Shown piece by piece: positions 1 to 60,419 of a stretch of 64,000 nt of DNA. The first letter of the stretch is position 1; each line of letters starts with the position of its first letter. The notes beneath the pieces were generated by a model. That model worked only from the letters and a program-made list of their open reading frames with translations. It had not been told where the DNA came from and searched no databases. The position numbers were made by a program, and so were the translations under genes. The stretch is from Eledone cirrhosa (lineage: Eukaryota): NCBI GenBank assembly GCA_964016885.1, contig OZ024756.1:9362001-9426000 (forward strand), written 5' to 3'.

Positions 1-6
1 GAAAAT

Positions 7-1471
7 TTGCTAGAGGCTAGAAAATACGTATCTTTTGGGGAGGATGGTTCTTTTACGATCAACTCCCCAGAAGAAGTGCGTCAACAGGTTTATAAGAATA
101 CCGTAACCTACAGAACCATAACCAACGAAACAAGAAAGCCAGCGCAATTGACCGAAAGTCAAATTGAGCTGGTTCTGAAAGAAATTAAAAACGACATACT
201 CTTTATTCAAAGAGGAAAGCTGTATGCCAGCATTATGGTCCGAATGAAGGACGAAATGCTGGCGCAAAAATATTCGGTGGCACCTATAGTGTCACCACAA
301 TACACCTTCTTCCCCACATATAAAGGAAGAAGAACACAAAGAATAAGAACGTGGAGCCCAACGCCGGAAATTAACATCTGGTCCGTCCTAACAGGATTTA
401 CCGACCTAGATAAGGATATACTTATTTCAGCAGGGGAGTCCACCAGTGGACTGTTCGGGGGGGGGGGGGGAAGTCTGGAGGTTCTCTTACAGATGACACC
501 TGAGAGAATCTCCGGAATACCCGACCGAGTGCTACTGGATGGGCGAACCTTCATAAATATCACAGTGGAAGGCAGGAGACCCTCATGTTACCACTGCGCT
601 GGCAGAGGTCACCTGAGGACGGCCTGCCCTCTACTAACAACAAAAAAAAAACACTGCTACAAACACCACAACAACAACAAAAACAACCAGCACCACCATC
701 ACAAAAACAACAAAATACACTCCCATCACCACCAGAACGACAACAAAAACCAACAACACCACCACCACCACCACCACCACCACAACAACAACATCAACAA
801 CAGCTCAAGAAAACAACCCAAAACACGGTCCCACCCAGCCCCACCCCACAGAACACAAATACAAAAACATACGCAGTTCATACACAACCCGGAGATATAC
901 CCCTCCCCTCCAATACGGAAGAGGAGCTCATATCGTCGGAAGACGAGGGGGCTCCCTTCCAAAAAGTGAAAAGAAAAAAACGTACACACACCACACAAAC
1001 AAAAATAACCCCACCTGACAACACAACACAGACAATAAAACGCAAACTCATTCAACAACAACAAGCAAAAACAAACACAACAACACAAAAACTCTACACA
1101 TACATAAACAAAAACAATAAAAACCTAACTGAAAAAATAGAAAACAACCCTTCGATACAAACCGAAGGGCCGAATTTCGTAACGGCAATGGGACTCCCTA
1201 ACCTGAAAATGGTGAAAATCCCACTTGACATTTTCAAAACTTTGAAAGACATTTACCCTGAGGACGTGGGCCCACCCTGCACCAGGCCACTCAACCGCGT
1301 CCTCCTGAAAGGTTTTCCCCTCCCCTCCGCAAACACCCACACAGCTCCAAAGATCCCAACCCTCCACACACTAATACCCCCACACCACCACAAACCACCA
1401 CCCCACCCATAAATCCCTCCACCAGCCCCATGGAAACTGAGCGGCCCGAACCCCGGGACGCAGAGAGGTAA
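7..1471 (+). pseudogene. Tx1 ORF1 (gag-like zinc-knuckle protein), frameshifted
   Basis: ORFs 7-969 and 585-1412 join at the A-run near 642-651; both align with ORF1 of the copy at 31669-33511. Confidence 0.8.
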
Positions 1472-1494
1472 GTGCCTCTTTCTTTGCCACCAAC

Positions 1495-4442
1495 ATGGCT
1501 GTCTTAAGAGTAGGTTGTCTAAATGCGCGTGGCCTGGGCTCACCTTGGAAGCAAGCTAAACTTCTAAGTGACCTCAGGTCACAATGTATAAATGTGATGG
1601 TTATTTGCGAGGCCCGGATCAGCAGCATGCGACAGCTAGCCCCCACCTTTGATGACTTTGAGATGCACGCATCTCTCTGTCAGCCCGGAGGTGGGGGTGG
1701 GGTTGTCGTTCTGCTGCAAAAACATCTGGGTCTCGCTACACAGACGGTACACTTGGACCCGGAGGGTCGACTCGTGGTTCTGGACCTTGGCAATGGTGAA
1801 GGCGAAGCTTTTAGGCTTGTCGCCGTATACGCCCCTTTTGGGGCAATGCGGTCGAACTTCTTCCATCGTCTGGAGACTTTTCTAGGGATGTCCCGCTCCT
1901 TGCTTTTAGTGGGGGACTGGAATGGTATCCTAGATGCACGTTGGGACTATGTAGGGGCATGTCCCGATAGAGGGGGGTGTAACAGCCTTAAGGGGTTAAT
2001 CAGCCGATTTGACCTGGCCGATAGATACCGACTAGATTTTCCGACTGTACCAACCTGGACCTGGTCAAATAAGTGGTCAATCTAGATCGTACCTAGATAG
2101 GTTCTTAGTTAGAATTAAGGATAGGGACTTTTTAAGTTGTCCAGAAATGCTCATGGTGGGCTATTCAGACCACAAGTTAGTGACCTGCGTAGTCCACCTT
2201 GATAGAACGCATAGGCAGGGGCCCGGTTACTGGAAGCTCAACTTGTCCTTACCGGCAAGTAGAGCTTACAGGGACCGGATTAGAACCTTAGTTAAGGAGC
2301 GGTTGACGGGCGCCATCGTCAACAACAGGTGGTGGGGCTCTCTAAAAAGAGAGATTAGAGTAGTTTCAATAGGAGTTAGTAAGGAGTTAGCCTCAGATAG
2401 AAATAGGAAGGAAAGGGAGTTGGTAGTTAATGTTGAAGAGGCAATGAGAAGCGGCAACGTGGCCAGAGTGCAAGCGTCGAGAACGGTCTTGAACCAGTTC
2501 TTCGACGCGAAACACGAAGGCTGCGTTGTCCGAAGCAAAATACGTGCTCTGGGAAACGAGGGGACCAAAGCTGTTAGCTGGGCCCGCGTGACAGAAGCGA
2601 AAAGTGGGATTAAATCCACTATCCGGTCTTTGCGAGACCAGGATGGACGGGTGATCCTTGAACCTAAGCAAATGTGCGAGGCCTTTCAAAGGCACTTTGC
2701 CCAATTGTTCGGGAGGGGCGGGGAGCCGGTTGGAGATGTGGATTTCGGTCCATACCTCGACGGCCTGCCGCGTCTTTCGGACAGGGAGGCGAGGTCCTGC
2801 GACGGGCCGATCTCAGCTGCTGAAATAGGGGACGTGCTGAGCCTATGCGGCAAACGCAAATCTCCAGGACTCGATGGTCTGCCCTACGAACTATATATTA
2901 ATATGCCGGACTTGTTCCCCGATCTCCTCGAGGCGGTCTACTGCAACTGGCAATAGAACGGGAGAATTCCCTGTTCTGTGACCAAGGGCGTAGTCTCGCT
3001 AGTGAGGAAGGACGAGAACAAGGGGTATGACATTAGTAATTTTAGGCCCATAACTCTGCTAAATGCAGAGTTAAAGATTTTGGCGAAGGTGTTAGCGAAG
3101 AGGTTGGCGCTTGTCGTGGGCAACCTGGTGGGAGATGCGCAGACATGCGCTATCCCGTCCAGGTCCATCCACGACAACCTCCACCTCATGCGATACATCA
3201 TAGAGAGGGTTGGGAACGAACCCGGCTTTGGTGGGGCCCTGATAAATTTAGATCAGTCTAAAGCGTTCGATAGGGTGGACCATGGTTACCTGGATGCGGT
3301 GCTAGCGGCGACTGGGTTCGGACCCGTTTTCAGGGGCTGGATCACTGCCATGCACAGCAGCCGCATCTGCTCTAGAGTCAAGGTGAACGGCTACCTTTCG
3401 GAGCCGTTCGAAATCACCCGCTCCATCCGACAGGGATGCCCTCTCTCCTCCCTTCTGTATGTATTGGCTCTCGAGCCACTACTGCGGAAGTTGGAGTTGT
3501 TGCAGGGCATCCCTTTGGAACCGGGATTGCACAAAGCGGTGTCGGCCCATGCCGATGACGTAAACACGTAAAAATGCGTAAACACGCATTGAGGCTAAGG
3601 CACCTCCACGTATTCCTCACCGGTCAACCGGTGTGGGTCCCGTTTGTGAGGCGAGCCTCCCCGAGGCTCGTCTCGCTCACCGAGCTGCAGTCCTGGGTGA
3701 AGCAAAGACCGAGAAAACTGGGCGACTGGCACACCGAGTGTGCCCAGGCGCTCACGGCTCTCTGGCAGGCGGACCCGGCTATCGACGGAGACTCCACCTC
3801 GTCATTCTATAGAGGGCTGGTGGTTAGCGGGTGCGACGACGCCCTCGGAGAAGCCCTAGGCATGGAGGAGGACGAACTGGCCAGTCTATTCGGTAGGACT
3901 TTCGGCCCGGGACCTATGGACAACTTCCAGAAGTCCTTGGCCTGGCAGTGCTACCGAGGGGCTCTGCCCGTTCGGGATAAGCTCTACAGACACGGGCTCC
4001 CGGGTAGGGACCCCTCGAAAAAGATCTGTCCCAGATGCGTGCGCGACGAGGAAACCGTCGCGCACGCATTGGTGCACTGCCCGGGCGTTGCCGATCTGTG
4101 GGGCTATGTCGAACAACTGCTGTCACGGGTGGGACCAATTAGGTTGACCACCGAGTCCATTGTAACGATCAAGCCGCCTCCCCCCTTCAAAAATGAAGGG
4201 GAGGCGGTCTTCCTCTATGTAATAGCCATGGTAAAAGAGGCTATATGGTGGACGCGTCTGAAAGGGCTGAGGTCGGACACCTTTCTCTCCGGCCAACAAC
4301 TGGTCCTTTTCTTCCGATACCATTTTGGAAGAAGGATCAGGATGGAGAGAGAGGTGCTCCACTCCAGCCAGTTTATGAAAGGTGGGTGAAAGTTGCGAGA
4401 ATGGCCCGTGTGAATGGGCCTTCTCTCTACCTTAGCCTGTAG
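1495..4442 (+). pseudogene. Tx1 ORF2 (APE-RT-Zn knuckle), disrupted
   Basis: Split into 1495-2085, 2147-2956, 2978-3571 and 3574-4389; about 500 bp deleted near 3565 (DDV jumps to MRKHALRLRH) relative to the intact ORF2 at 28198-31635. Confidence 0.9.
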
Positions 4443-4664
4443 GTGGAACAGAAAGAAGGGAGCACCCTCTCTTTGTGCTCCCGTGGAGAAGGGTCGCACA
4501 CTTTTTTTCGGGTGTGTGTGTGACCCCAAAACGATCCCTCCCTATTGAGGACCTTCTTGTTATTATTTTGTTTGTTATATTTTTCTTACTCGATTTTTAT
4601 GTAAACTCCCCCCACCCATGTACATGTCCCTTTCTGTTGCGCCCTAGTGGCAAATAAACAGAAA

Positions 4665-4730
<66 letters not shown>
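4665..4730. repeat. (TCTG)n microsatellite at the Tx1 3' junction
   Basis: Directly visible. Confidence 0.95.
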
Positions 4731-5792: not shown

Positions 5793-5804
5793 TATATATA
5801 TATA

Positions 5805-5993
5805 TGAACAAGTATGACCCCGACGGCAGAGCTCAATCCGTTTCGACGGGTAATTCTGGACATAATTAGCCGTCGAAACGGCTTGAGCTCTGCCGTCGGG
5901 GTCATACTTGTTCCTATTACCCACTCTACTACCCTAAGTATTGAGTACTTTGGTGCGTTATGGTCCACCTGGTTCCTTACCACATTTCCTTCG

Positions 5994-5995
<2 letters not shown>
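5805..5995. mobile_element. Short (TA)n-embedded element family A with inverted 5' duplication and half-hammerhead
   Basis: Copies at 7938-8100, 12567-12758, 15392-15585, 19960-20060, 27130-27328, 27430-27530 and 34855-34913; carries GAAA-CGGC-loop-GCCG-TC-GGGGTC. Confidence 0.75.
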
Positions 5996-6059
<64 letters not shown>

Positions 6060-6466
6060 AAACGGAAAAAATGAAACGAAATTTCATTTCCCACTCTTAG
6101 TACGGCTGTTACTTAAATATAAGTATGTATACGTACATACATATATGTATACAGACGTACAGTAGTATGTATATATATATACATGCACACATATATATAT
6201 GTACGTATGGATTCACCGAACATTTATTATAATACTCGGTGTGTTTGTAAACAAACATCCCGAATTAAGTCGTAGTGTCTAGCAACCATCGTTGCTCTTT
6301 TGTTCAACACTGACAAAGGAACGCTGTACTAGTTTCAAGCTTATTAGCTATCGTCAGCAACGTATACCTTCCTGCCAGATGATTGAACGTCTGAAAGTAT
6401 ATACTTTCCTTATGCATATTAACGGTTGGGCAGCCTAATTTGCATATCGAGTGAGTTAATCAGCCG

Positions 6467-12520: not shown

Positions 12521-12568
<48 letters not shown>

Positions 12569-12858
12569 CGAAGGAAATGTGGTAAGGAACCAGGTGGACC
12601 CTAACGCACCAAAGTACTCAATACTTAGGGTAGTAGAGTGGGTAATAGGAACGAGTAGGACCCCGACGGCTGAGCTCAAGCCGTTTCGACGGCTAATTCA
12701 GGACTGAATTAGCCGTCGAAACGGCTTGAGCTCAGCCGTCGGGGTCCTACTCGTTCCTATATATATATATATAGAGAGAGAGAAATAAATAGGGAGAAAG
12801 AGAAAGGCAGAGAGAAAGAGAGGTAGAAAGAGAGAGAAAGAGAGAAGGAATTTGAGAG

Positions 12859-13459: not shown

Positions 13460-14450
13460 GTATGGGATATCGTCTGCCTCATATGTATGAGATATCGTCT
13501 GCCTCAAATGTATGGGATATCGTCTGCCTTATATCTATGAGATATCGTCTGCTTCATATGTACGAGATATCGTTTACTTCATATGTACAAGATATTTGCT
13601 TCATATCTACGAGATATCGTCTGCTTCATATTGTACGAGATATCTGCTTCATATGTACGAGATATCTCCTTCATATGTACGAGATATCGTCTGCTTCATA
13701 TTGTACGAGATATCGTCTGCATCATATTGTACGAGATATCGTCTGCTTCATATTGTACGAGATATCGTCTGCTTCATATGTACGAGATATCTGCCTCATA
13801 TGTACGAGACATCGTCTGCTTCATATGTACGAGATATCTGCTTCATATGTACGAGATATCTGCCTCATATGTACGAGACATCGTCTGCTTCATATGTACG
13901 AAATATCTGCCTCATATGTACGAGACATCGTCTGCTTCATATGTACGAGATATCTGCTTCATATGTACGAGATATCTGCCTCATATGTACGAGACATCGT
14001 CTGCTTCATATGTACGAGATATCTGCTTCATATGTACGAGATATCTGCCTCATATGTACGAGACATCGCCTGCATCATATGTACGAGATATCTGCTTCAT
14101 ATGTACGAGATATCTGCCTCATATGTACGAGACATCGTCTGCTTCATATGTACGAGATATCTGCTTCATATGTACGAGATATCTGCCTCATATGTACGAG
14201 ACATCGTCTGCTTCATATGTACGAGATATCTGCCTCATATGTACGAGACATCGTCTGCTTCATATGTACGAGATATCTGCTTCATATGTACGAGATATCT
14301 GCCTCATATGTACGAGACATCGTCTGCTTCATATGTACGAGATATCTGCTTCATATGTACGAGATATCTGCCTCATATGTACGAGACATCGCCTGCTTCA
14401 TATGTACGAGATATCTGCTTCATATGTACGAGATATCTGCCTCATATGTA
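13460..14450. repeat. Minisatellite of 22/25-bp units with 69-bp higher-order repeat
   Basis: Units TATGTACGAGATATCTGCTTCA, TATGTACGAGATATCTGCCTCA and TATGTACGAGACATCGTCTGCTTCA. Confidence 0.92.
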
Positions 14451-15309: not shown

Positions 15310-15372
<63 letters not shown>

Positions 15373-15644
15373 ATATATATATATATATATAAAACGAAGG
15401 AATTGTGGTAAGGAACCAGATGGACCATAACGCACCAGAGTACTCAATACTTAGGGTAGTAGAGTGGGTAATAGGAAAAAGTATGACCCCGACGGCAGAG
15501 CTCAAGCCATTTCGACGACTATTTCTGGAGTCCAGAAATAGCCGTCGAAACGGCTTGATCTCTGCCGTCGGGTCATACTTTTTCCTATATATATATATGT
15601 CTATCCATCTTTCTACCCATATATCTATCTATCCATCTATCTAT

Positions 15645-17374
15645 CCACAAAAATCCCCCCTTCCTGAAAACAAAACCACGACATCACTCCAAACACAAAC
15701 ACCTACAACAAAACGAAAGCTCCCACAAGAACAACAGACAAAAACCAACACAACACAAGAAGAACATTACACATACATAAACAGTGAAAACAAAACCTTA
15801 ATGGAGGTCATCTCCAACGACCCTTCGGTGAAAACCGAAGGGAACATTTTTTCGAACTGTGTAGACAGACCCAATTTAAAGATGATTAAGGTCTCTAAAG
15901 AAAAGCTTTCGCAAGGACGTGGGTAATCCTTGCGTTAAGCCCATTAACCGCGTCCTTTTAAAATGTTTCCCCACCCCAGACACCCCCATCCCACCAGACA
16001 CCCCCTCCCCACCAAACATCTCCGTCCCCACCTCGACAGAAACCACCACCCCACCAAACAATCCCTCCAACACCCCCATGGAAATTGTGCAGCCTGGTCC
16101 CCAGGAGACGAAGAGGTGAGTGATTTCTTTTCCTCTTCTTTTAACTTTTCAGCACCAACATGGCCAATATAAGAGTTGGGTGTGTGAATGTACGCGGCCT
16201 GAGGATGTCCTGGAAACAGGGCAAACTCTTAAACGACCTCAGGTTGCACAGTATGGATGTAGTAGCCATTTGCGAGTCCAGGATCCACAGCGAGCGACAG
16301 TTGGCCCCCATCTTCGACGACTTTGAGATCTACGCATCTCTCTGTCAGCCGGGAGGTGGGGGTGGGGTTGCCGTTTTGCTGTGGAAACAACTGGACCTCG
16401 TAACACAGACGGTACATCTGGACCCGGAGGGTCGACTGGTGGTCCTAGACGTTGACGGTAGTGAAGGAGGAGCCTTCAGGCTGGTGGCCGCATATGCCCC
16501 ATCCGGGACACCGCGGCCAGACTTCTTCAAACGTCTAGAGACTTTTCTGGGAACGTCCCGCTCCCTGCTATTAGTGGGGGACTGGAATGGAATCCTAGAT
16601 GCACGTTGGGACTATGTGGGAGCATGTCCCGATAGAGGGGGGTGGGGGTGTAACCAGTCTTTTTGGTAGGACTTTCCGCCCGGGACCTATGGACAACTTC
16701 CAGAGGTCCTTGACCTGGCAATGCTACCGAGGAGCTCTACCAGTTCGAGACAAGATGCGAGCAAGACATTGAAACCATCTTGCACGCAATTGTATACTGC
16801 CCGGGCGAAACTACGCAGAACCACTGCTGTCGCGTATGGGACAACTCCAGTTGACTGCCGAGTCCATAGTAAGGATCAAACCGCCAACTTCTTTCAAAAA
16901 CGAAAGAGAGGCGGTTTTCCTCTGTATAGTGGCTATGGTGAAAGAGATTATATGGTGGACGAGATTGAGAGGACTGAGGACAGATGCCTTTCTCTCCGGA
17001 CAACAACTCATTCCCTTCTTTAGGTACCACTTTAGAAGGAGAATCAGAGTGGAGAGAGAGGCACTGCACCCCAGTAAATTTACTGAAAGGCGGGTGAATG
17101 GCCCGAGTGATTGGGCCTTCTCTGTATATAAATCTGTAGGTTGAAGAAGAGAGCAAAAGGAAGAAAGGAGCACTTGCACAACACGCTCCTGAAGTTGAGG
17201 GTTGTTCTATCGACGGGGTATTAAACAAGACATTTGTAACACCTCCCCCCCTATTGGGGATTTCGATTGTTAAATTTGTATGTTTAATATTTTCACGCGA
17301 CTGTATGTAAAATACCCGGCATGTGTCTTTGTATTGTCCCCTTTTCTTGTGCGCCCTTGTGGCAAATAAAGAAA
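15645..17374 (+). mobile_element. Tx1-clade copy B, 5'-truncated and internally deleted
   Basis: ORF1 C-terminus (NDPSVKTEGN..LKMIKV), APE N-terminus (MANIRVGCVNVRGL..GDWN), deletion at ~16655 into the C-terminal region, 3' end GTGGCAAATAAAGAAA; 5' flank TATCTATCTATCCATCTATCTATCC. Confidence 0.88.
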
Positions 17375-17403
17375 TATATCTATCTCTCTCTATATATATA
17401 CAT

Positions 17404-19961: not shown

Positions 19962-20346
19962 AAAAAGTATGACCCCGACGGCAGAGATCAAGCCGTTTCG
20001 ACGGCTATTTCTGGACTCAAAGTTATGGTCCATCTGGTTCCTTACCACAACTCCTTCGTTATATATATATATATATATATTTTACTTGTCATTTATACTC
20101 GCTAAGAATGTAGCTTCTAATATGAATGGAAAGAGATGGATGATGTGTAGGTGTAAATGGTAGTACAGTGGTCTGGATAACCAAAGATGTGGGTTCGACT
20201 CCCATGTACGTCAATACTCATCTTTTTCCATTTATCTGAGGGTTCTAAACCCCATTATCAGACTAAAATTTCTTTAGTCAAAAATACGGTGAAAGCTATT
20301 CTATTTTCTAATTTCAAACCTGCTCACTGTTTCAAAACGTATTTTA

Positions 20347-27038: not shown

Positions 27039-27132
<94 letters not shown>

Positions 27133-27327
27133 AACGAGTAGGACCCCGACGGCTGAGCTCAAGCTGTTTCGACGGCTAATTCGACGGCTAATTCAGAATT
27201 AGCCGTCGAAACGGCTTGAGCTCAGCCGTCGGGGTCCTACTCGTTCCTATTACCCACTCTACTACCCTAAGTATTGAGTACTTTGGTGCGTTATGGTCCA
27301 CCTGGTTCCTTACCACATTTCCTTCGT

Positions 27328-27364
<37 letters not shown>

Positions 27365-28197
27365 GGAGAGAGAGGGGGAGAGGATGAGAGAGAGTGAGTG
27401 AGAGAGAGAGGGAGAGAGAGAGGGATATTTGAGCTCTGCCGTCGGGGGTCATACTTTTTCCTATTACCCACTCTACTACCCTAAGTATTGAGTACTCTGG
27501 TGCGTTATGGTCCACCTGGTTCCTGACCACTTTTGAAGAACAGGAAGTAAGATTCCAATAAAACGGCTTCGTTTCTTGGTCAAAACAAAAGTGTTTTTTT
27601 AAAACCTTCTTTCATATTGGGAGAGGAATTCATGTCACCACGTCCCCTTTCTCTCTGTCTGCTTCATGTCTGCCTGTCTGTCACTCTCTCTCTCCCCTCT
27701 CTCTGTCTCAATCCTCCCCCTGTCTCGCTCTCTCTCCCCTCTCTTTGTCCCCCTCTCTCTCTATATATATATATACATACACACATATATATATATATTA
27801 TATATATTTAACACGTGACCTATGTTTCAAACGCAGTACCAATAACCACCACCAACACCAACGACTATAATGACAGGTTGTTTTTGTTATTGAGAGAGAA
27901 ATACAGTGAGAGAGGCCGTGTGAAAGATAGATATGTTTCTTTTATTTGCCACTAGGGCATCAAAAGTGGGACAAGTACAATGGGGGGAGTTTACACAAAA
28001 AGGCGTCCTCAATAAGGAGGAGGCAATAACAAAATATAAAAATAAAATAAGATATAACAAAAAATAAAATTTTTAACAAAATCCTCAATAGAGAGGAGGC
28101 GCCTTGGGGGGTCGCACACACCCCCGAAAAAAGTGTGCAACCCTTTTCCTCAGGAGCACAGAGAGGGGGTGCTCCCTCGTTCCTTCCTCTTTTCCAC

Positions 28198-31100
28198 CTA
28201 CAGGCTTATGTAAAGAGAAGGCCCATTCACACGGGCCATTCTCGCCACTTTCACCCACCTTTCATAAAAACGACTGGGGTGCAGCACCTCTCTCTCCATC
28301 CTGATCCTTCTTCCGAAATGATATCGGAAGAAACGGACCAGTTGTTGGCCAGAGAGAAAGGTGCCTGACCTCAGTCCTTTCAGACGCGTCCACCATACAA
28401 CCACTTTCGCCATGGCTATTACGCACAGAAACACCGCCTCTGCTTCATCTTTGAAGAGGGGAGGCGGCTTGATCATTACAATAGACTCGGTGGTCAACCG
28501 GATCGGTCCCACCCTTGACAGCAGTTGTTCGACATAGCCCCACAGATCGGCTACGCCCGAGCAGTGTACCAATGCGTGTGCAACGGTTTCCTCGTCGCAC
28601 ACGCATCTGGGACAGATCTTTTTGGCGGGGTCCCTACCCGGGCGCCCGTGTCTGTAGAGCCTTTCTCGAACGGGTAAAGCCCCTCGGTAGCACTGCCAGG
28701 CCAGGGACTTCTGGAAGTTGTCCATAGGTCCCGGGCTGAATGTCCTACCGAACAGGCTGGCCAGTTCGTCCTCCTCCATGTCTAGGGCTTCTCCGAGGGC
28801 GTCGTCGCACCTGCTGCGTACCAGCCCTCTATAGAGTGTTGCGGTGGAGTCTCCACTGATAACCGGATCCGCCTGCCAGAGGGCGGTGAGCGCCTGGGCA
28901 CACTCAGTGTGCCAGGCGCCCAGTTTTCTCGGTCTTTGCTTGACCCAGGATTGCAGCTCGGTGAGTGAGACGAGTCTGGGAAAGGTTCGTCTCACAAACG
29001 AGGCCCACACCGGTTGTCCGGTGAGGAATACGTAGAGGTGCCGTAGCCTTAATGCGTGTTTACGCATCATTAGCCACGGCATCCCCAGCCCTCCTTTCGA
29101 AGGGTGTTGACAGCAGATGGATCTCCTCACCATAGGAGCCCGCCTCTTCCAAAGGAATTGGAAGAGCGCGCGCTCCATCTTGGTGAGGGTTTCCCTTGGG
29201 CAGGGCACTACGGTCAGGCGGTAGTAGTTGACGGACGCTATATAAGTGTTCGCCACCTCCGCCCGACCTTTCAGGGATAGTTTGCAACTGGCCCACTTCT
29301 GGGTCAGTGCAAACACCCTGTTCGTAACCTCCGCCCAGTTTTTCTCCACCTGGAGGTCCGGTCCGAACCAGACCCCGAGCAACTTCACCGGGCCCTCCGT
29401 CCAGCGTCCGACGACGCCATCGGAGGGCATCGGTCTGCCCCTCCACGTGCCGAGTTGCAAACCGATCGACTTGTCCCGGTTCAGCTTAGCCCCTGTGAAC
29501 TTTTCGTACTCCTCCAGTAAGGTGCCGACCGCCTCGATTTCGGAGGCCGTCGACACCATTACTGTCACATCATCGGCGTAGGCTGACACCGCTTTCCGCA
29601 ATCCCGGTTCCAAAGGGATGCCCTGCAACAACTCCAACTTCCGCAGTAGTGGCTCGAGAGTCAACACATACAGAAGTGAGGAGAGAGGGCACCCTTGTCG
29701 GATGGACCGCGCGATTTTGAACGGCTCCGAGAGGTAGCCGTTCACCTTGACCCTAGAGCAGATGCGGCTGCTGTGCATAGCAGTGATCCAGCCCCTGAAA
29801 ACGGGTCCGAAGCCTGCCGCCGCTAGCACCGCATCCAGGTAACCATGGTCGACCCTATCGAACGCCTTAGATTGATCCAAGTTGATCAGAGCCCCACCAA
29901 AGCCGGGTTCGTTCCCAACCCTCTCTATGATGTATCGCATGAGGTGGAGGTTGTCATGGATGGACCTGGAAGGGATAGCGCATGTCTGCGCATCTCCCAC
30001 CAGGTTGCCCACGACAAGCGCCAACCTCTTTGCTAGCACCTTGGCCAAAATCTGTAACTCTGTATTTAGCAGAGTTATGGGCCTGAAGTTACTTATTTCG
30101 TCCCCCTTGTTCTCGTCCTTCCTCACTAGCGTGACTACGCCCTTGGTCACAGTACAGGGAATTCTCCCGTTCTGTTGCCAGTTGCAGTAGACCGCCTCGA
30201 GGAGATCGGGGAACAAGTCCGGCATAGCTAGATATAATTCGTAAGGAAGACCATCGAGACCCGGGGATTTGCGTTTGCCGCATTGGCTCAGCACGTCCTC
30301 TATCTCAGCGGCCGAAATCGGCTCCTCGCAGGACTTCGCCTCCCTGTCCGAGAGGCGCGGCAGGCCGTCGAGGTATGGACCGAAGTCCACGTTCCCAACC
30401 GGCTCCCCGCCCCTCCCGAACAGTCGGGCAAAGTGCCTTTGAAAGGCCTCACACATCTGCTTAGGCTCAAGAATCGCCCGTCCATCCAGGTCTCGCAAAG
30501 ACCGGATGGTGGATTTAGTTCCACTGTTGGCCTCTGTCACGCGGGCCCAGCTAACAGCTTTGGTCCCCTCGTTCCCTAGAGCACGTATTTTACTTCGGAC
30601 AACGCAACCTTCGTGCTTCGCGTCGAAAAACTGGCTCAAAGCCGTTCTCGACGCTAGCACTCTGGCCACGTCGCCGCTTCTAATTGCCTCTTCTACTCTA
30701 TCTATTAGCTCCCTTTCCTTCCTATTCCTATCCGCAGCTAGAACCTTACTAAATTCAATCGAGACTACTCTAATCTCTCTCTTTAGAGATACCCACCACC
30801 TGCTGTTGACGATCGCTCCAGTCAACCGTTCCTTAACTAACGTACTAATCCGATTCCTGTAGGCTCTACTTGCCGGCAAGGACAAGTTGAGCTTCCAGTA
30901 ACCGGGGCCCTGTCTATGCGTTCTATCAAGGTTGACCATGCAGGTCACCAACTTGTGGTCTGAATAGCCAACCATGAGCATTTCTGGACAGCTTAAAAAG
31001 TCCCTGTCCTTATTTCTAACTAAAAATCTATCTAGGTACGATCTAGATGATCCGCTGCGATTTGACCAAGACCAGGTTGGCACCGTCGGAAAATCTAGTC

Positions 31101-31635
31101 GAAATCTATCGGCCAGGTCAAATCGGCCGAGTAACCCCTTGAGGCTGTTGCACCCCTCTCTATCGGGACATGCCTCTGCATAGTCCCAACGTGCATCCAG
31201 GATACCATTCCAATCCCCCACTAAAAGCAGGGAACGGGACGTCCCTAGAAAAGACTCCAGACGCTGGAAAAAGTCGGGCCGCTCTGTCCCAAAAGGGGCA
31301 TATGCGGCTATCAGCCTAAAGGCTCTACCTTCACCACTGCCAAGGTCCAGCACCACCAGTCGACCCCCTGGGTCCAAGTGAACTATCTGTGTTGCAAGGC
31401 CCATATGTTTTTGCAGCAGAACGACAACCCCACCTCCACCTCCGGGCTGACAGAGAGATGCGTGCATCTCAAAGTCGTCAAAGGTGGGGGCTAGCTGTCG
31501 CATGCTGCTGATCCGGGCCTCGCAGATAACCATCACATTTATAGATTGTGACCTGAGGTCATTTAGAAGCATTGCTTGCTTCCAAGACGAGCCCAGGCCA
31601 CGCGCATTTAGACACCCTACTCTTAGCACAGCCAT
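28198..31635 (-). CDS. Tx1 ORF2: AP endonuclease - reverse transcriptase - CCHC knuckle, 1145 aa, uninterrupted
   Basis: NARGL/ICEAR/GDWN/SYLDRF/SDHK (APE); KSPGLDG, FRPITLLN, LDQSKAFDRV, RQGCPLS, AYADD, LLGVWF (RT); CPRC-EETVAHALVHC. Confidence 0.95.
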   Translation of the reverse strand: MAVLRVGCLNARGLGSSWKQAMLLNDLRSQSINVMVICEARISSMRQLAPTFDDFEMHASLCQPGGGGGVVVLLQKHMGLATQIVHLDPGGRLVVLDLGSGEGRAFRLIAAYAPFGTERPDFFQRLESFLGTSRSLLLVGDWNGILDARWDYAEACPDREGCNSLKGLLGRFDLADRFRLDFPTVPTWSWSNRSGSSRSYLDRFLVRNKDRDFLSCPEMLMVGYSDHKLVTCMVNLDRTHRQGPGYWKLNLSLPASRAYRNRISTLVKERLTGAIVNSRWWVSLKREIRVVSIEFSKVLAADRNRKERELIDRVEEAIRSGDVARVLASRTALSQFFDAKHEGCVVRSKIRALGNEGTKAVSWARVTEANSGTKSTIRSLRDLDGRAILEPKQMCEAFQRHFARLFGRGGEPVGNVDFGPYLDGLPRLSDREAKSCEEPISAAEIEDVLSQCGKRKSPGLDGLPYELYLAMPDLFPDLLEAVYCNWQQNGRIPCTVTKGVVTLVRKDENKGDEISNFRPITLLNTELQILAKVLAKRLALVVGNLVGDAQTCAIPSRSIHDNLHLMRYIIERVGNEPGFGGALINLDQSKAFDRVDHGYLDAVLAAAGFGPVFRGWITAMHSSRICSRVKVNGYLSEPFKIARSIRQGCPLSSLLYVLTLEPLLRKLELLQGIPLEPGLRKAVSAYADDVTVMVSTASEIEAVGTLLEEYEKFTGAKLNRDKSIGLQLGTWRGRPMPSDGVVGRWTEGPVKLLGVWFGPDLQVEKNWAEVTNRVFALTQKWASCKLSLKGRAEVANTYIASVNYYRLTVVPCPRETLTKMERALFQFLWKRRAPMVRRSICCQHPSKGGLGMPWLMMRKHALRLRHLYVFLTGQPVWASFVRRTFPRLVSLTELQSWVKQRPRKLGAWHTECAQALTALWQADPVISGDSTATLYRGLVRSRCDDALGEALDMEEDELASLFGRTFSPGPMDNFQKSLAWQCYRGALPVRERLYRHGRPGRDPAKKICPRCVCDEETVAHALVHCSGVADLWGYVEQLLSRVGPIRLTTESIVMIKPPPLFKDEAEAVFLCVIAMAKVVVWWTRLKGLRSGTFLSGQQLVRFFRYHFGRRIRMEREVLHPSRFYERWVKVARMARVNGPSLYISL

Positions 31636-31668
31636 GTTGGTGGTAAAGAGAAAAGGGAAACGGGCCGC

Positions 31669-33300
31669 TCAATTTCCATGCTGGTTGGGGATGGGTTGTT
31701 GGGTGGGGTGGTGGTTTGTGGAAGTGAAGGGGCATCGGTGTGTTGTGGGGTTGGGGTGTTTGTCGTTGAGTGGGTGTCTGGGTGGGGGGGGGGGGAAATT
31801 TTTTAGGAGGACGCGGTTGATTGGTTTGGCGCAGGTGGGGGGGGGGGGGGGCACGTCCTCCGTGAAATTTATTTTCAGTCTTTTGTACAAGTGCATTGGG
31901 ACTTTTATCATTTTCAAATGAGGTAGTCCCACAGCAGTTATAAAGTTTGGCCCTTCGGTTTGGACCGAAGGGTTTGCTGAAATTGTTTTCCGTAATTCTT
32001 TGTTGTCTGTGTTCATATATGTGTATTGTAAGGTCTTTTTTTGTGTAGCAGTTAGTGTTGTGTGACAGGGAGGGGTGGTTTGTGTGTAGTTTGTGTTCTC
32101 TTGGGGGGGGGGGGGGGGGGTTAAAGTTAACATGTGTGTCTGTGGTGCGTCTCCTCTTCTTTCTTTTTACTTGTTGAAAAGGATCTTTTTCGTCTTGCGA
32201 CGAAAGAGGTTCGTCTTCCTTGTTGGGTGGGAGGGGTATGTTTTCTGGTAGTGTTTGCGGTGTGCGTGTTTTTGTATTTGTTTTGGGTGGGGAGGGATTG
32301 GGTGGGACAGTATTCTGTGTTATTTTTTCACGTGTTTGTTGTTGTTGTTGTTGTGGTGGTGGTGGTGGTGGGGTTGTTGGTTTTTGTTGTTGTTGTGGTT
32401 GTTTTTGTTGTTGTAGTTGGGGTGGTGTTGGTGTTGGTAGCAGTGTTTTTTTCTGTGTGAGCTGGGGACAGGCAGCCCTCAGGTGACCTCTATTGCCACA
32501 GAGGTAACAGGAGGGACGCCTACCCTCCACAATAATGTTGAGGTGGGTACGGTCATCCAGCATGACGCGCTCAGGGATTTGGGCGATGCGTTCTGGCCTT
32601 ATTTGGGTCAGAACTTCGAGGCTCGTTCCACTGAACGCATCGCCGGATGCCTTCCCTATTGAAATGAGGTTGTCCTCGTCTAAATTGAGGAAACCGGTTA
32701 GTAACCACCAGTAGTTTATGTTTGGGGTGATGGTGGTTATCCATATCCTCTGGGTTTTTTTACCCATGTAGGTGGGGAAGAATGTGTAGTGTGTGGACCG
32801 AATTGGCGACACAGAGTATTTTTTTGCCGCCAATTCGTCTTTCATCAATATGGATAAACTCCCATAGAGTTTATCCTTTTGTATGAAAGTGATGTCTCTC
32901 ATCGCGTCTTTCAAGACTAACTGAATTTCCGCTTGAGATGGTTGCGCTGGTTTCTTTGTTTTATTTAAAATTGTTCGGAATACGACAGTTCGTAATTCCG
33001 TCTGTCTTTTTAGCTCCGGAGGTGAATGTATAGAAAACGAACCGTTTTCGCCAAAAGACACATATTTCTTGGCTTTTTCCAGCATTTCTTTTGCTTTTGA
33101 AATATCTTCCAGCACATAAGCGACTGATAATTTAGCCGTTTGTGCAAAAGATATTTTGTTTTCGTTTTGGATATTAGTATTGTTTTGTTTCTCGTCGTTT
33201 GAGTTGTTTTCATCTTTGTTGTTGTTGTTGTCTTTCTCGTTTCGTGTGTGGATACTTGTGACGTTTGTGTTGTTGTTGTTTTTGTTGTCTTTATTGTTGC

Positions 33301-33331
<31 letters not shown>

Positions 33332-33511
33332 GTTGTTTTCAAATTCTTGTGTAGTTGTGGCTACATCTAGTGGTCGGTCAACAGGTGAAGACAATTCTTC
33401 CTCTCTCTGACCTCTGCCTTTGGCATCTGCTGCTGTGACAGTGGCAGGGGGAAGCTGTGAGTATGACTTCCCCTTTCCTTCTTTGATTGATGGTGAAGAT
33501 GCTTCAGCCAT
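31669..33511 (-). CDS. Tx1 ORF1 (zinc knuckle CYLCGNRGHLRAAC); apparent frameshift at the G-homopolymer ~32103-32120
   Basis: ATG of MAEASSPS at 33511; the conserved C-terminal block (NPSVQTEGPNF..LKMIKVP) lies in the alternative frame 31669-32133; exact 3' end uncertain. Confidence 0.75.
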
Positions 33512-33736
33512 TTTTCTCAAAATAGGGTTTTTCGAAGTTTTTCGAAAGATAAAATGTTTACAATACTATTTCGCCCAAAGGCGCAGAATATTTTGAGAGA
33601 CCGACCAGATCAAAATTTGACCTGGCAGTCCCTCTACAAAATGGTACAAAAATGAAAGTTTACAGTTTACAATTTCCGTATGAATTTAAACAAAAACTTA
33701 CCGAGCGAGCTCAGCACATGTGTCCATCGACAGAGA

Positions 33737-33773
<37 letters not shown>

Positions 33774-38343: not shown

Positions 38344-38400
38344 TTATACACACAGACATTCACACACAATCATATACACACATATACACACATATAATTA

Positions 38401-40262
38401 CTGGTACAACGTGAAATAAAGTGTCTTGCTCAAGGACACGGTGGACTGGAACAACGTGAAATAAAGTGTCTTGCTCAAGGACACAGTGGACTGGAACAAC
38501 GTGAAATAAAGTATCTTGCTCAAGGACACAGTGGACTGGAACAACGTGAAATCAAGTGTCTTGCTCAAGGAAACAGTGGACTGGAGCAACAGGAAATGCA
38601 GTGTCTTGCTCAAGGACACAGTGGACTGGAGCAACGTGAAATAAAGTGTCTTGCTCAAGGACACAGTGGACTCGAGCAACGTGAAATAAAGTGTGTTGCT
38701 CAAGGACACAGTAAACTGGAGCAACGGGAAGTAAAGTGTCTTGCTCAAGGACACAATGGACTGGAGCAACGTGAAATAAAGTGACTTGCTCAAGGACACA
38801 GTGGACTGGAACAACATGAAATAAAGTGTCTTGCTCAAGGACACAGTAGACTGGAGCAACGTAAATTAAAGTGTCTTGCTGAAGGACACAGTAGACTGGA
38901 ACAACGTGAAATAAAGTGTCTTGTTCAAGGACACAGTGGACTGGAACAACGTGAAATAATGTGTCTTGCTCAAGGACACAGTGGACTGGAGCAACGTGAA
39001 ATAAAGTGTCTTGCTGAAGGACACAGTGGACTGGAGCAACATGAAAAAAAGTGTCTTGCTCAAGGACACACTGGACTGGAACAAGGTGAACTAAAGTGTG
39101 TTGCTCAAGGACACAGTGGACTGGAGCAACGTGAAATAAAGTGTCTTGCTCAAGGACACAGTGGACTGGATCAACGTGAAATAAAGTGTCTTGCTCAAGG
39201 ACACAGTGGATTGGAGCAACGGGAAATAAAGTGTCTTGCTCAAGGACAGTGGACTGGAGCAACGTGAAATAAAGTGCCTTGCTCAAGGACACAGTGGACT
39301 GGAACAAGGTGAAATAAAGTGTCTTGCTCAAGGACAAAGTGAACTGGAGCTACCTGAAATAAAGTGTCTTGTTCAAGGACACAGTGGACTGGAGCTACCT
39401 GAAATAAAGTGTCTTGCTCAAGGACACAGTGGACTGGAGCAACGTGAAATAAAGTGTCTTGCTCAAGGACACAGTAAAGTGGAGCAACGTGAAATAAAGT
39501 GTCTTGCTCAAGGACACAGTGGACTGGAGCAACGTGAAATAAAGTGTCTTGCTCAAGGACACAGTGGACTGGAGCAACGTGAAATAAAGTGTCTTGCTCA
39601 AGGACACAGTGGACTGGATCAACGTGAAATAAAGTGTCTTGCTCAAGGACACAGTGGACTGGAGCAATGTGAAATAAAGTGTCTTGTTCAAGGACGCAGT
39701 GGACTGGAGCAACATGAAATAAAGTGTCTTGCTCAATGACACAGTGGACTGGAGCAACGTGAAATAAAGTGTCTTGCTCAAGGACACAGTGGACTGGAGC
39801 AACATGAAATAAAGTGTCTTGCTCAATGACACAGTAAACTGGAACAACGTGAAATAAAGTGTCTTGTTCAAGGACACAGTGGACTGGAGCAACGTGAAAT
39901 AAAGTGTCTTGCTCAAGGAGAGAGTGGACTGGAGCAACGGGAAATAAAGTGTCTTGCTTAAGGACACAGTGGACTGGAGCAACGTGAAATAAAGTGTCTT
40001 GTTCAATGACACAGTGGACTGGAGCAACGTGAAATAAAGTGTCTTGCTCAAGGACACAATGGACTGGAGCAACGTGAAATAAAGTGTCTTGCTCAAGGAC
40101 ACAGTGGACTGGAACAACGTGAAATAAAGTGTCTTGCTCAAGGACACAGTAGACTGGAGCAACGTGAAATAAAGTGTCTTGCTCAAGGACAGTGGACTGG
40201 GGTATCATGAAATAAAATGTCTTGCTCAAGGACAGTGGTCTGGGTTAACATGAAATAAAATG
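38401..40262. repeat. 45-bp satellite (~41 units) derived from the CORE-like segment of the OR-like SINE
   Basis: Unit CTGGAGCAACGTGAAATAAAGTGTCTTGCTCAAGGACACAGTGGA closely matches the SINE segments at 48825-48865 and 57591-57628. Confidence 0.92.
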
Positions 40263-40572
40263 TCTTTCAAATCTGGCTGATCAGTTAGATCTGCTAATAT
40301 GCAGATATAACTAATCAGCCAGTCTGCTAATATGCAAATCAGGCCGATCAGTCACTGTATTTTTGAAAATAGCATATATTTTCACTAGCTCTGACAGTTT
40401 GGCAGGTGAACAGTGAGCTGTACTGAGGAAGGGTGATGCCCAGAAACATTAGCGTCTGCAGTTCTGTTCCCATGCCAACACAAGAGCAAGAATGAAGTGT
40501 TCATTCTACTGATATGGCTATAAAATAGAGGCTTGTTTGCATAATTGCAAACAAATCGAATGTTATTATTGT

Positions 40573-52632: not shown

Positions 52633-53945
52633 CGAGGTGTGTCCGAAAAGTTCCAGGACTGATGTTACAAAAGATTTATTTCAAATCCAAACTTCGCACT
52701 AAGAGTTTTCTCCTTCAAAGTAATCCCCCTGGAGTATGTAACTGTAATCTTAGCTCTTTGCAGCGATCAAACTTTTTTCTTCATAATTTTATATACATGT
52801 CCGCTGTTTCAGGTCGTCAAGCAATGAACGCAGAGCAACGAACGAACTTGAAGTTTCTGGTACGGTTGGGGAAAACTCCGTCAGAAGCACTAGGATTGCT
52901 GCAGTAAGTGTATGGAGATGAGACGATGTCACGCTCACGTGTTTTTGAGTGGTGCAAAAGGTTTAAAGAAGGACGCGAGGACATGGAAGATGACCCCAGG
53001 AGCGGAAGGCCCTCAACAACCAGGACTGAGGTCAACGTTGAGCGCGTCAGGCAGATGGTGCGTAGCGATCATCGGCTGCCTGTTCAACTGATGGCAAATG
53101 AGCTGGGCATGAATCGGGACAGCGTCTGGAAGATTCTCACTGAAGATTTGGACATGCGGAAACTCTGCGCGAAGATGGTACTAAAACTGCTGAACGATGA
53201 CCAGAAGGGTCGACGCATGCAAATGTGCCAGGACATCCTCGAGCGTCTTGAAACCGAACCAGACTTGCTAGGGACAGTCATCACCGGTGATGAGTCATGG
53301 ATCTTCGAGTACGATCCAGAAAGCAAACGCCAGAGCCTTCAGTGGAAGAGTCCGCCGTCGCCAAGGCCGAAGAAAGCACGACAGTCGAAGTCCAAAGTCA
53401 AGGTCATGTTGATCACATTCTTCGATGTGAGGGGGATCGTCCACTGCGAGTTATTGCCACAGGGCCAGACGATGAACCAACATGTCTACAAAGAGATACT
53501 GCAGCGTTTGCTTCGTTCAGTGCGCGAGAAGAGGCGAGAGTTCTGGCAGGACAACTCGTGGCTGCTTCACCATGACAACGCGCCTGCTCACAATGCCCTG
53601 AGCATCCGACAGTTCCTGGCCAAGAAGAACATCGCCGTGCTGGAGCAACCTCCCTACTCCCCCGATCTGGCTCCGTCTGATTTTTTCCTATTCCCCAAGC
53701 TCAAGGGGGTCATCAAGGGGACCCGTTTTGAAGACGTGGACGACATCAAAAAGGCTGTGACGACGGAACTGCGGAGGATCCCGGAAGAATCCTTACAGGA
53801 GTGCATGCAAGCGTGGCAGAAAAGGATGGAAAAGTGCATTAGACTCCAGGGGGATTACTTTGAAGGAGAAAACTCTTAGTGTGAAGATTGGGTTTGAAAT
53901 AAATCTTTTGTGACATCAGTCCTGGAACTTATCTGACACACCTCG
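52633..53945 (+). mobile_element. mariner (DD34D, irritans-like) DNA transposon, full length
   Basis: ~57-bp TIRs CGAGGTGTGTCCGAAAAGTTCCAGGACTGATG... / ...CATCAGTCCTGGAACTTATCTGACACACCTCG; TA on both sides. Confidence 0.95.
52824..53879 (+). pseudogene. mariner transposase with a single premature stop (TAA at 52905-52907)
   Basis: MNAEQRTNLKFLVRLGKT..LLQ*VYGDE..; RSGRP, TGDESW, HHDNAPAH, YSPDLAPSDF. Confidence 0.92.
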
Positions 53946-58385: not shown

Positions 58386-58523
58386 TACTATTTATAGTTA
58401 TGTATATACTATAAACAACTATAAACAAGAAAAGTCAGTAATTTATTACTACCTTATTACCAGTAAGAGAAATAGCTCAATGTAAGAACATCAGGTGTTT
58501 TACAGAGCAGGAAGGCATTAATT

Positions 58524-60419
58524 ATGGCCTTGAACAATAGTGACCTGACTAGATCCCAAATTGATGTCTTCCTTGCGGCCCGAAAAACCATAATTACATT
58601 TGAAGATCAATTATGGACCCGCAAGGATACACATAACAACTTTGACATAACTATGGGATCTAGTGACTCGGCGCAGGTCACTGATTTGGTGGGCCTATAT
58701 CTACTAAATGAAATTCATAAGAACCTACCGTACCTAAATGGTGGCTTATACCGCGATGATGCACTACTCCTTATAGACTATAACAAATTAAATATAGAAA
58801 GAACTAGGAAACAATTACATAACATTTTCAAAAATTTCAACTTAAGTATCACCTTAGATAAAAACACTAAAAACGTTAACTTCCTTGGTGCTACCCTTTG
58901 CCTAGACTCTAAAATATATAAACCCTTTCATAAACCAAACGAAAAACTAATTTTTGTGGATACCAACTCTATCTATCTATCTAAGGCGGGTAAAATTCCC
59001 GAGATCCATGGACGAGTTCTCTCCAGCGGTCTCTGTCCCTCATTATCGCTGCCATATCCCGCATCTCCAACAGACCAGTGTCTGTCCTTAGGGCATCAAC
59101 ATATGTTAACCTTGGTCTTCCTCTTCTAGTGTGTCCATGTAGGGGCTCCCAAAGGAGCACTGAGTGCAATGTCAACTCTGGATGTCGGTGAGCATGTCCA
59201 GCCAACCTCAGTCTCCTCTGTGTCACTTTTGAGCTAACCACCCTAAATCCATATTAAACTCAATTACTAAAGGAATATCTAATAGAATCTCTAATCTATC
59301 ATTTAACGAAACGATATTTAACAATAATTCACAATACTATAATGAGGCCTTAGCTAAATCAGGCCATAAAAATGAGATTGAATTTCTACCTATAAAATCA
59401 CATAGTTACAACATTATTTCTCACAATATGGCCATGAGAAAAATAATAAAAGTACTAGCCACTGTAACTCTAAGACGAAGGGTAATATCAAACTTAACTC
59501 GTACCAAAATAAACACCACAATAATAATATAAACAGAAATACAAATACCTAAAAAAACATTACAAAAAACAAAAATAGAAGAACTAATACATTCTTCAAT
59601 CCCCCTTTCAATATAAACGTCTCTACCAACTTGCCTGAGGCTTTCTTCTCAATACTAGAAAAACACTTCACAACCGGCCACAAGTACCATAATCTTATCA
59701 ATAAAAATACCATTAAAATCCCTTACTCTACCACACCTAACATCGCATACCATATAGCTAGTAGTAATAAAAGGAAGATTAATAATTATTTCCAACTAAT
59801 TAAAACACAACAGGGAGTAAACTTACAGAACAGCATGGTACCTGTAAATCCTAGTAGCAATAATAATAATGGTAATAGCACTAATGAAATCAATAACAAT
59901 AGGAACGACAACCATCATTACCCTAATGCTATCCCTAGCAACCAGACTGCTACACAACATAGTAACCGGCAAGCAAACAACTAGAATAACTGTAACTGTA
60001 GAACAAATAGAACTTGCCCCTTAGGTAAAAATTGCTTAATCAAAGACATCATTTACTCATGCACGGTCAACACAAACAACTCTTCTAAAACATATATTGG
60101 CTCAACTTCGAACTGCTTCAAGACGAGATACAACTCACACCTCCACTCTTTCAAAAATCCCAATCTAACCAACTCCACTTCTTTATCTAGTTACATACAC
60201 TCTCTTAAAACTAGGAATAGACCATATACACTTCAATGGGAAGTAGTAGGTAGGGCCGCATCGTATAAACCACCGATTAAATTGTGTAACCTCTGTCTTC
60301 TAGAGACCCGTACTATAATCTTTTCGAAACTAGACCTCCTAAATAGAAAATCAGAGGTCTTTTCCTCATGCCAGCACCACTACCGACACTCGTTCCATAA
60401 CTTTAAACCTAGCTGCTAG
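58524..60419 (+). pseudogene. PLE reverse transcriptase-GIY-YIG ORF, disrupted
   Basis: Interrupted by an RTE insertion (58971-59233), stops and frameshifts. Confidence 0.85.
58971..59233 (-). mobile_element. RTE-clade LINE 3' fragment with (GATA)n tail, nested in the PLE
   Basis: RRLRLAGHAHRHPE..VLLWEP..RRGRPRLTYVDALRTDTG..MRDRDRWRE; removing it restores PLE D-T-N-S-N-H-P. Confidence 0.85.

Follow-up and report, generated by a model that had tools for sequence, protein, structure and literature searches.

A 64,000-nucleotide stretch of Eledone cirrhosa DNA (contig OZ024756.1, positions 9,362,001 to 9,426,000; hereafter the window, in whose own numbering all positions are given) carries three related copies of a retrotransposon without long terminal repeats (a non-LTR element), here called A, B, and C, which were identified by self-BLAST and tblastn. 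At its 3′ end each copy is followed by two TRTC units (R, purine) in the same strand and phase, and a preference for TCTA/TCTG targets is supported within this window. Judged from its coding sequence, the lineage is an L1-group element of the apurinic/apyrimidinic endonuclease (APE) type and most likely a member of the Tx1 clade; it probably prefers TRTC repeats in one orientation and phase, using target-primed reverse transcription. The copies are three diverged subfamilies, with nucleotide identities to C of ∼90% for A and ∼73% for B, and not the single family that had been proposed in an earlier note on this DNA. No further fragments of the lineage were identified in the window by tblastn with six relatives as queries.

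Insertion junctions and target repeats

The copies and the features that define their junctions are as follows; the target site duplication is abbreviated TSD, open reading frame ORF, and untranslated region UTR.

<1-4664, plus strand: copy A, with its 5′ end beyond the window edge
4665-4730, plus strand: (TCTG)16.5 directly 3′ of copy A
15585-15645, plus strand: degenerate TCTA tract 5′ of copy B; its last 8 bp (15638-15645) are the TSD copy TATCTATC
15646-17374, plus strand: copy B, with a 5′ truncation that falls inside ORF1
17377-17384, plus strand: 3′ TSD copy of B
27923-27933, minus strand: 3′ TSD copy of C, 11 bp, TATCTATCTTT in element orientation
27934-27935, minus strand: two extra nucleotides (CA) separating the terminal GAAA of C from the TSD
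27936-33736, minus strand: copy C, full length, 5.8 kb
27936-28197, minus strand: 3′ UTR of C, 262 nt, ending AATAAA-A-GAAA without poly(A)
28198-31635, minus strand: ORF2 of C, 1,145 amino acids (aa), open
31623-33511 (end coordinate approximate), minus strand: ORF1 region of C
33512-33736, minus strand: 5′ UTR of C, 225 nt
33737-33773, minus strand: 5′ TSD copy of C (33737-33747), terminating the upstream (TCTA)n array

The TSD of C is exact across 11 bp (TATCTATCTTT at 33737-33747 and 27923-27933) and, as the earlier note had described, stands at the end of a (TCTA)n tract, an AGAT array of 8.8 units (33739-33773) that ends with the 5′ TSD copy. The long array lies 5′ of C, whose 3′ side carries just two repeat units, both within the TSD. 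TCTA-type repeats had also been described at both junctions of B, and these were found as a degenerate 5′ tract of ∼15 units and a 3′ junction reading TA-TATCTATC, with a TSD of 8 bp if exact, extending to 10 bp if one mismatch is allowed. Copy A runs directly into the (TCTG)n tract reported for it, the sole ACAG-class tract of at least 12 nt in the window.

The 3′ termini of all three copies have the form GGCAAATAAA(0 to 2 nt)GAAA, and a poly(A) tail, which is usual though not universal in the L1 group, was present in none, so that the earlier description of the shared terminus stands. Past the terminal GAAA, the sequence reads TC TGTC TGTC in A, TA TATC TATC in B, and CA TATC TATC TTT in C. 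A constant 2-nt spacer is thus followed by TRTC-TRTC in identical strand and phase in all three, with spacer letters that differ by subfamily (TC in A, TA in B, and CA in C). The presence of TCTA repeats on the 5′ side of C and of the truncated B marks them as target DNA rather than tail. For B, whose truncation within ORF1 nevertheless has TCTA at its 5′ junction, the repeats can be neither a tail nor a head encoded by the element. The element-encoded tail that the earlier note had named as its own refutation therefore fails for B and C; the 5′ end of A lies outside the window. The targets of the three copies were also considered as tails of RTE elements, and this was rejected, as no RTE-like sequence was found beside the arrays by eye or by BLAST of the flanks.

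The window is heavily loaded with microsatellites (179 Tandem Repeats Finder [TRF] rows), and 152 of its tracts are AT tracts. Tracts of at least 12 nt comprise three of the AGAT class and one of the ACAG class, and three of these four touch copy junctions. Using as background the positions of this window outside the elements and their 100-nt margins, the in-register NN-TRTC-TRTC pattern was found at 16 of 102,536 positions. A motif-free test, in which three random sites were each required to lie beside a doubled tetramer with units no more than one mismatch apart, gave a P value of ∼7e−6, and a test of column identity (8 of 13 columns) gave 1.1e−3 in a million random triples. Some microsatellite is abutted by 17% of background positions, sense-strand TCTA/TCTG making up 0.6% of those, and although (AT)n dominates the background, a plain (AT)n tract follows at none of the three 3′ junctions. 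In PMC4494074, a family is treated as target specific when one sequence type occurs in >20% of flanks; counted in this window only, the figure for A, B, and C is three of three.

Classification and ORF2

Copy C was correctly described earlier as having an uninterrupted ORF2 of 1,145 aa with APE and YADD motifs. Pfam matches were obtained to Exo_endo_phos (PF03372), RVT_1 (PF00078), and zf-RVT (PF13966), giving a layout of an N-terminal APE domain, reverse transcriptase (RT), and a C-terminal zinc-binding domain, with YADD at residues 686 to 689. Alignment to human L1 placed the APE catalytic positions at N10, E39, Y113, D141, N143, D202, D226, and H227, and the human L1 anchor T192 is replaced by serine (S189). 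The AlphaFold model, built from a 68-sequence alignment, had a pLDDT of 89.5, and human L1 ORF2p was the top PDB match both by sequence (E value, ∼7e−48) and by fold (TM score, ∼0.62 to 0.64). Searching PDB with the endonuclease (EN) region only returned a sole match, the L1 chimera LR1 (E value, 0.0025). The EN hairpin loop, which has been implicated in the choice of target, spans residues 190 to 198 in C.

An ORF2 with APE, RT, and zinc-binding domains, two ORFs, a TSD, and 5′ truncation in some copies are features of L1-group APE-type non-LTR retrotransposons, and on these sequence features the lineage is assigned to that group. Membership of the Tx1 clade is the most likely placement, and we infer it from the ORF1 type, the target preference, and a list of bivalve long interspersed nuclear element (LINE) clades in which Tx1 is the sole L1-group clade named (PMC10294476). 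Tx1 elements are described as having a Type I ORF1 (RRM and/or zf-CCHC) and not Transposase_22 (PMC5203782). In ORF1 of C, one CCHC knuckle was identified at ∼32462-32512 with an E value of 0.0028, which is below the Pfam gathering score, and no Pfam match to Transposase_22 was obtained. The region has an Asn-rich N terminus and a Pro/Gln/Thr-rich C terminus. Atlas look-alikes of the ORF1 core carry zf-CCHC, RRM, or ZCCHC3 RNA-binding domains (scores, 0.90 to 0.92) and are a lead only; the fold predicted from a two-sequence alignment was poor (pLDDT, 32).

The best named relative was an Argonauta hians protein, with 62% identity across 44% of the query, which makes an octopod host likely; the only other named animal match in the homolog searches was from Phallusia (26%). 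The protein P0003 was 69% identical, and a large further group shared 38 to 45%. In an RT tree with 69 rows (C and A plus 67 chosen by hand from ∼360 matches; quick maximum likelihood with SH-aLRT support only), these two copies joined P0003 and the Argonauta protein (SH-aLRT, 100) within a larger group of 13 rows (99), separate from eight named plant L1s.

Between copies, the ratio of nonsynonymous to synonymous substitution rates (dN/dS) in ORF2 was 0.13 to 0.26 in five of five segments, which denotes purifying selection, with dS values of ∼0.3 for C versus A and 0.6 to 1.0 for C versus B. The three lineages evidently diverged while functional. Copies A and B now carry lesions: A has lost 2 nt near 2070 and 1 nt near 4367, has an in-frame stop near 2954, and lacks a further ∼0.49 kb of ORF2 after the YADD equivalent, and a large internal deletion in B spans EN to the C-terminal domain, with most of ORF2 gone.

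ORF1 and intactness of copy C

The earlier note had called C near-intact and its family possibly still active. The open ORF2, the TSD, and the full length agree with the former, but ORF1 is frameshifted twice and its stop codon is deleted. In C, the portion of ORF1 shared with A and B is divided among three frames, the shifts falling at poly-C runs at 32103-32120 (18 nt) and 31784-31795 (12 nt), and a 21-nt deletion removes the stop present in A and B. The indels in these runs may reflect either true slippage or an error of assembly. A 668-codon stop-free frame was considered as an intact ORF1 and rejected, the C-terminal blocks shared with A and B lying in two other frames and its 3′ third giving a dN/dS of ∼2 against A, versus 0.34 in the shifted frame. 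With two frameshifts in ORF1, continuing activity is unproven for C, and the window holds no near-identical sibling by which C could be dated. The open ORF2 and the perfect TSD together suggest that the insertion of C is young.

Of the six G/C runs of at least 10 nt in the window, four lie in ORF1 of A or C (457-470, 31784-31795, 31837-31851, and 32103-32120), and the frameshifts fall at two of the three that C contains.

The ORF1 cores of A (1-650) and C (32490-33090) share 62 to 65% nucleotide identity with saturated dS, compared with 87 to 94% for the ORF2s. This far greater divergence of the ORF1 core suggests that 5′ halves have been exchanged. A splice-donor-like motif was also found exactly once in each copy, at 33701 (minus), 1468 (plus), and 16116 (plus). 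In C, the GTAAGT sits 35 nt into the 5′ UTR; in A and B, the match is at the ORF1 stop and is followed by a pyrimidine tract ahead of the ORF2 start.

Predicted 3′-terminal hairpin

A 3′-terminal hairpin was predicted in all three copies (∼27939-27966, minus; 4632-4663, plus; 17343-17374, plus), with an invariant GCC/GGC stem and basal stem arms that vary together, most clearly in A. Basal arms all paired best with their own partners, the preference being strong in A (−7.6 versus −2.4 kcal/mol, with 34 of 5,000 shuffles as good) and weak in B (a tie; 483 of 5,000) and C (614 of 5,000). The predicted hairpin is a statistically weak lead. Stem-loops of this kind are known from stringent LINEs. 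No small nuclear RNA head or ribozyme was identified in an Rfam search.

Probable insertion mechanism and alternative explanations

In the mechanism regarded as probable, ORF1p (RNA-binding/CCHC) and ORF2p would assemble on the element RNA, as is established for the group and assumed here by analogy. The APE domain would nick the purine-rich (GATA/GACA)n strand, at a position that can be placed within ∼3 nt only (AGAY^AGAY, GAYA^GAYA, or YAGA^YAGA). RT would then prime on the 3′ OH and copy the RNA from its defined non-poly(A) end, where the register, and so the constant GAAA-NN-TRTC spacing, may be set by the terminal hairpin, by read-through of a few bases of the target, or by both. A staggered second nick 8 to 11 bp away would give rise to TSDs such as those observed for C and B. 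By analogy with the Tx1 families Kibi and Koshi, this strategy would park copies in dispensable repeats. In this account, specificity would come from the endonuclease rather than from pairing between RNA and DNA.

Several points weigh against this mechanism. The insertions number three, the background comes from one window, and the motif was defined post hoc; the earlier claim of a TCTA/TCTG-specific family accordingly holds for strand and phase in three of three copies and does not extend to genome-wide specificity. No empty site was seen in the window, the flanks of C having no second copy there by BLAST. The RT tree includes no named Tx1 and no vertebrate L1. The EN loop of C equals that of the promiscuous human L1 in length (9 aa), whereas the loop has 11 aa in Tx1L and TRAS1. 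Hairpin z scores were just −1.1 to −1.6, and 17 to 30 of 200 shuffles folded equally well. Finally, since the 3′ TSD copy of C contains two units only, the target may be a short motif, the 5′ copy having expanded later.

This last point leads to an account in which the target is a motif of ∼8 to 10 bp (TRTCTRTC) and the long arrays 5′ of C and 3′ of A grew afterwards by slippage. The two-unit 3′ TSD copies of both C and B, together with the degenerate state of the B tract, fit such an origin, but each of the three sites is also flanked on one side by an array that is longer or degenerate (8.8, 16.5, and ∼15 degenerate units), and an eight-unit expansion 5′ of C beside a perfect 11-bp TSD would need fast, one-sided slippage; we regard this account as quite improbable. 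Specificity could instead reside in the RNA, with the transcript ending in, or continuing into, a few TRTC units that anneal to nicked GAYA repeats and the endonuclease being relaxed. The constant 2-nt spacing with its subfamily-specific letters, the missing poly(A), and the L1-length EN loop would all be compatible with this, and target-specific integration can be strengthened by co-transcription with the target (PMC4494074). It is nevertheless unlikely, given that the 3′ junctions of C and B hold only two units, all within the TSD, with no expanded tail. In addition, the EN of the Xenopus element Tx1L is itself sequence specific, its target being nicked almost exclusively in vitro (PMC1950540), and target choice is attributed mainly to the endonuclease (PMC4494074).

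That the repeats are element-encoded tails, or that copies accumulated passively in microsatellite-rich DNA and match by chance, is very improbable. The large number of TRF rows would favor such a view, as would the fact that copy A shows the repeat at its 3′ end only, and an unrelated RTE-like fragment in the window ends in (TAGA)4, so such tails exist in this genome. Against this stand the repeats located 5′ of C and of the truncated B, the absence of any junction in plain (AT)n despite 152 such tracts versus 4 AGAT/ACAG tracts, and P values of 1e−3 to 7e−6.

A more elaborate picture, speculative and in our view doubtful, is of an octopod Tx1 lineage, some of its members recently active, that homes to GATA/GACA arrays in fixed strand and phase and has a hairpin-defined, non-poly(A) 3′ end. 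The TCTA/TCTG subfamily split may then have come about through changes around the EN loop, with ORF1/5′ halves being swapped meanwhile, and target supply may derive partly from RTE-type (TAGA)n tails. If true, the subfamilies would form a natural series for mapping the determinants of APE specificity, and one retrotransposon would be creating the niche of another.

Comparison with known target-specific elements

Tx1 families are reported to prefer Tx1D, U2 genes, and the repeats (TC)n, (TTC)n, (TTCC)n, and (TTTC)n, as well as several transposons (PMC4494074), so microsatellite preference is documented for them (PMC4494074; PMC3812793). Kibi [(TC)n] and Koshi [(TTC)n] of teleost fish and crocodilian Tx1 elements [(TTCC)n/(TTTC)n] are likewise APE- and RT-encoding non-LTR elements that prefer microsatellites (PMC4494074; PMC3812793). 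Their target units are pyrimidine rich, as is sense-strand TCTA/TCTG. The present lineage differs from Kibi and Koshi in host and in target: A, B, and C do not lie at (TC)n or (TTC)n, and the unit is TCTA/TCTG. Tx1L of Xenopus laevis is also an APE-encoding, target-specific member of the L1 group; it targets the transposon Tx1D and has an EN loop of 11 aa, compared with 9 aa in C. Human LINE-1 ORF2p is the closest solved relative of C ORF2 and shares the 9-aa loop length. Unlike A, B, and C, human L1 requires poly(A), nicks TTTT/AA, and has a Transposase_22-type ORF1. Waldo/Mino, Dong, and Togen belong to other clades (R1, R4, and NeSL related) and use other repeat units. They too are non-LTR microsatellite targeters, of ACAY and AC (Waldo/Mino), TAA (Dong), and TG (Togen) (PMC3812793).

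In Octopus vulgaris, 80 L1-Tx1 families make up 56.3 Mb (supplement of PMC13282606), and 13 families have 421 recently active insertions totaling 2.29 Mb at ∼5.4 kb each (PMC13282606), a size that fits the 5.8 kb of C. The text of that paper does not contain the word “target,” and no description of the insertion targets of octopus L1-Tx1 families was found in the literature searched. That literature likewise yielded no TCTA/TCTG or GATA/TAGA target, although Repbase/Dfam or Fig. 3 of PMC4494074 may record one. As microsatellite targeting is already known for Tx1, only the chosen repeat appears to be new, and the gain is incremental because the concept is established. Most of the target-specific Tx1 elements described come from vertebrates, lancelet, and cnidarians (PMC4494074), to which this lineage would add a mollusc case. 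APE choice of microsatellite targets has been called poorly understood (PMC3812793); an intact ORF2, a phased tetranucleotide target, and closely related TCTA and TCTG subfamilies would make it testable.

Neighboring sequences in the window

The labels RTE-like, Penelope-like, SINE-core-like (SINE, short interspersed nuclear element), and MITE-like (MITE, miniature inverted-repeat transposable element) used for neighboring sequences are tentative and motif based. An RTE-like 3′ fragment (58968-59200, minus) ends in (TAGA)4 and breaks into a Penelope-like RT frame that contains YRDD (58476-58967, plus); no Pfam match was obtained for these sequences (58476-59200). The (TAGA)4 is the sole AGAT/ACAG tract of at least 12 nt away from the junctions of A, B, and C, and its position at the end of the fragment shows that this repeat can also be seeded by a different LINE. 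Tails of RTE elements are covered in PMC2887409.

A multicopy palindromic MITE-like repeat lies within (TA)n tracts (e.g., 5793-6060, 12521-12791, 15328-15598, and 27118-27351) and is possibly a second microsatellite-associated element. A tandem array at 38400-40266 consists of 41.6 copies of a 45-bp unit with 91% matches, and the unit resembles part of a SINE core. A higher-order minisatellite with periods of 47, 69, and 116 occupies 13548-14450. At 52908-53879 (plus), a Tc1/mariner-type transposase frame of 323 codons was identified with Pfam matches to Transposase_1 and DDE_3. The window's only Rfam match, a tRNA-like sequence at 20142-20213 (plus; 38.2 bits), is possibly a SINE head.

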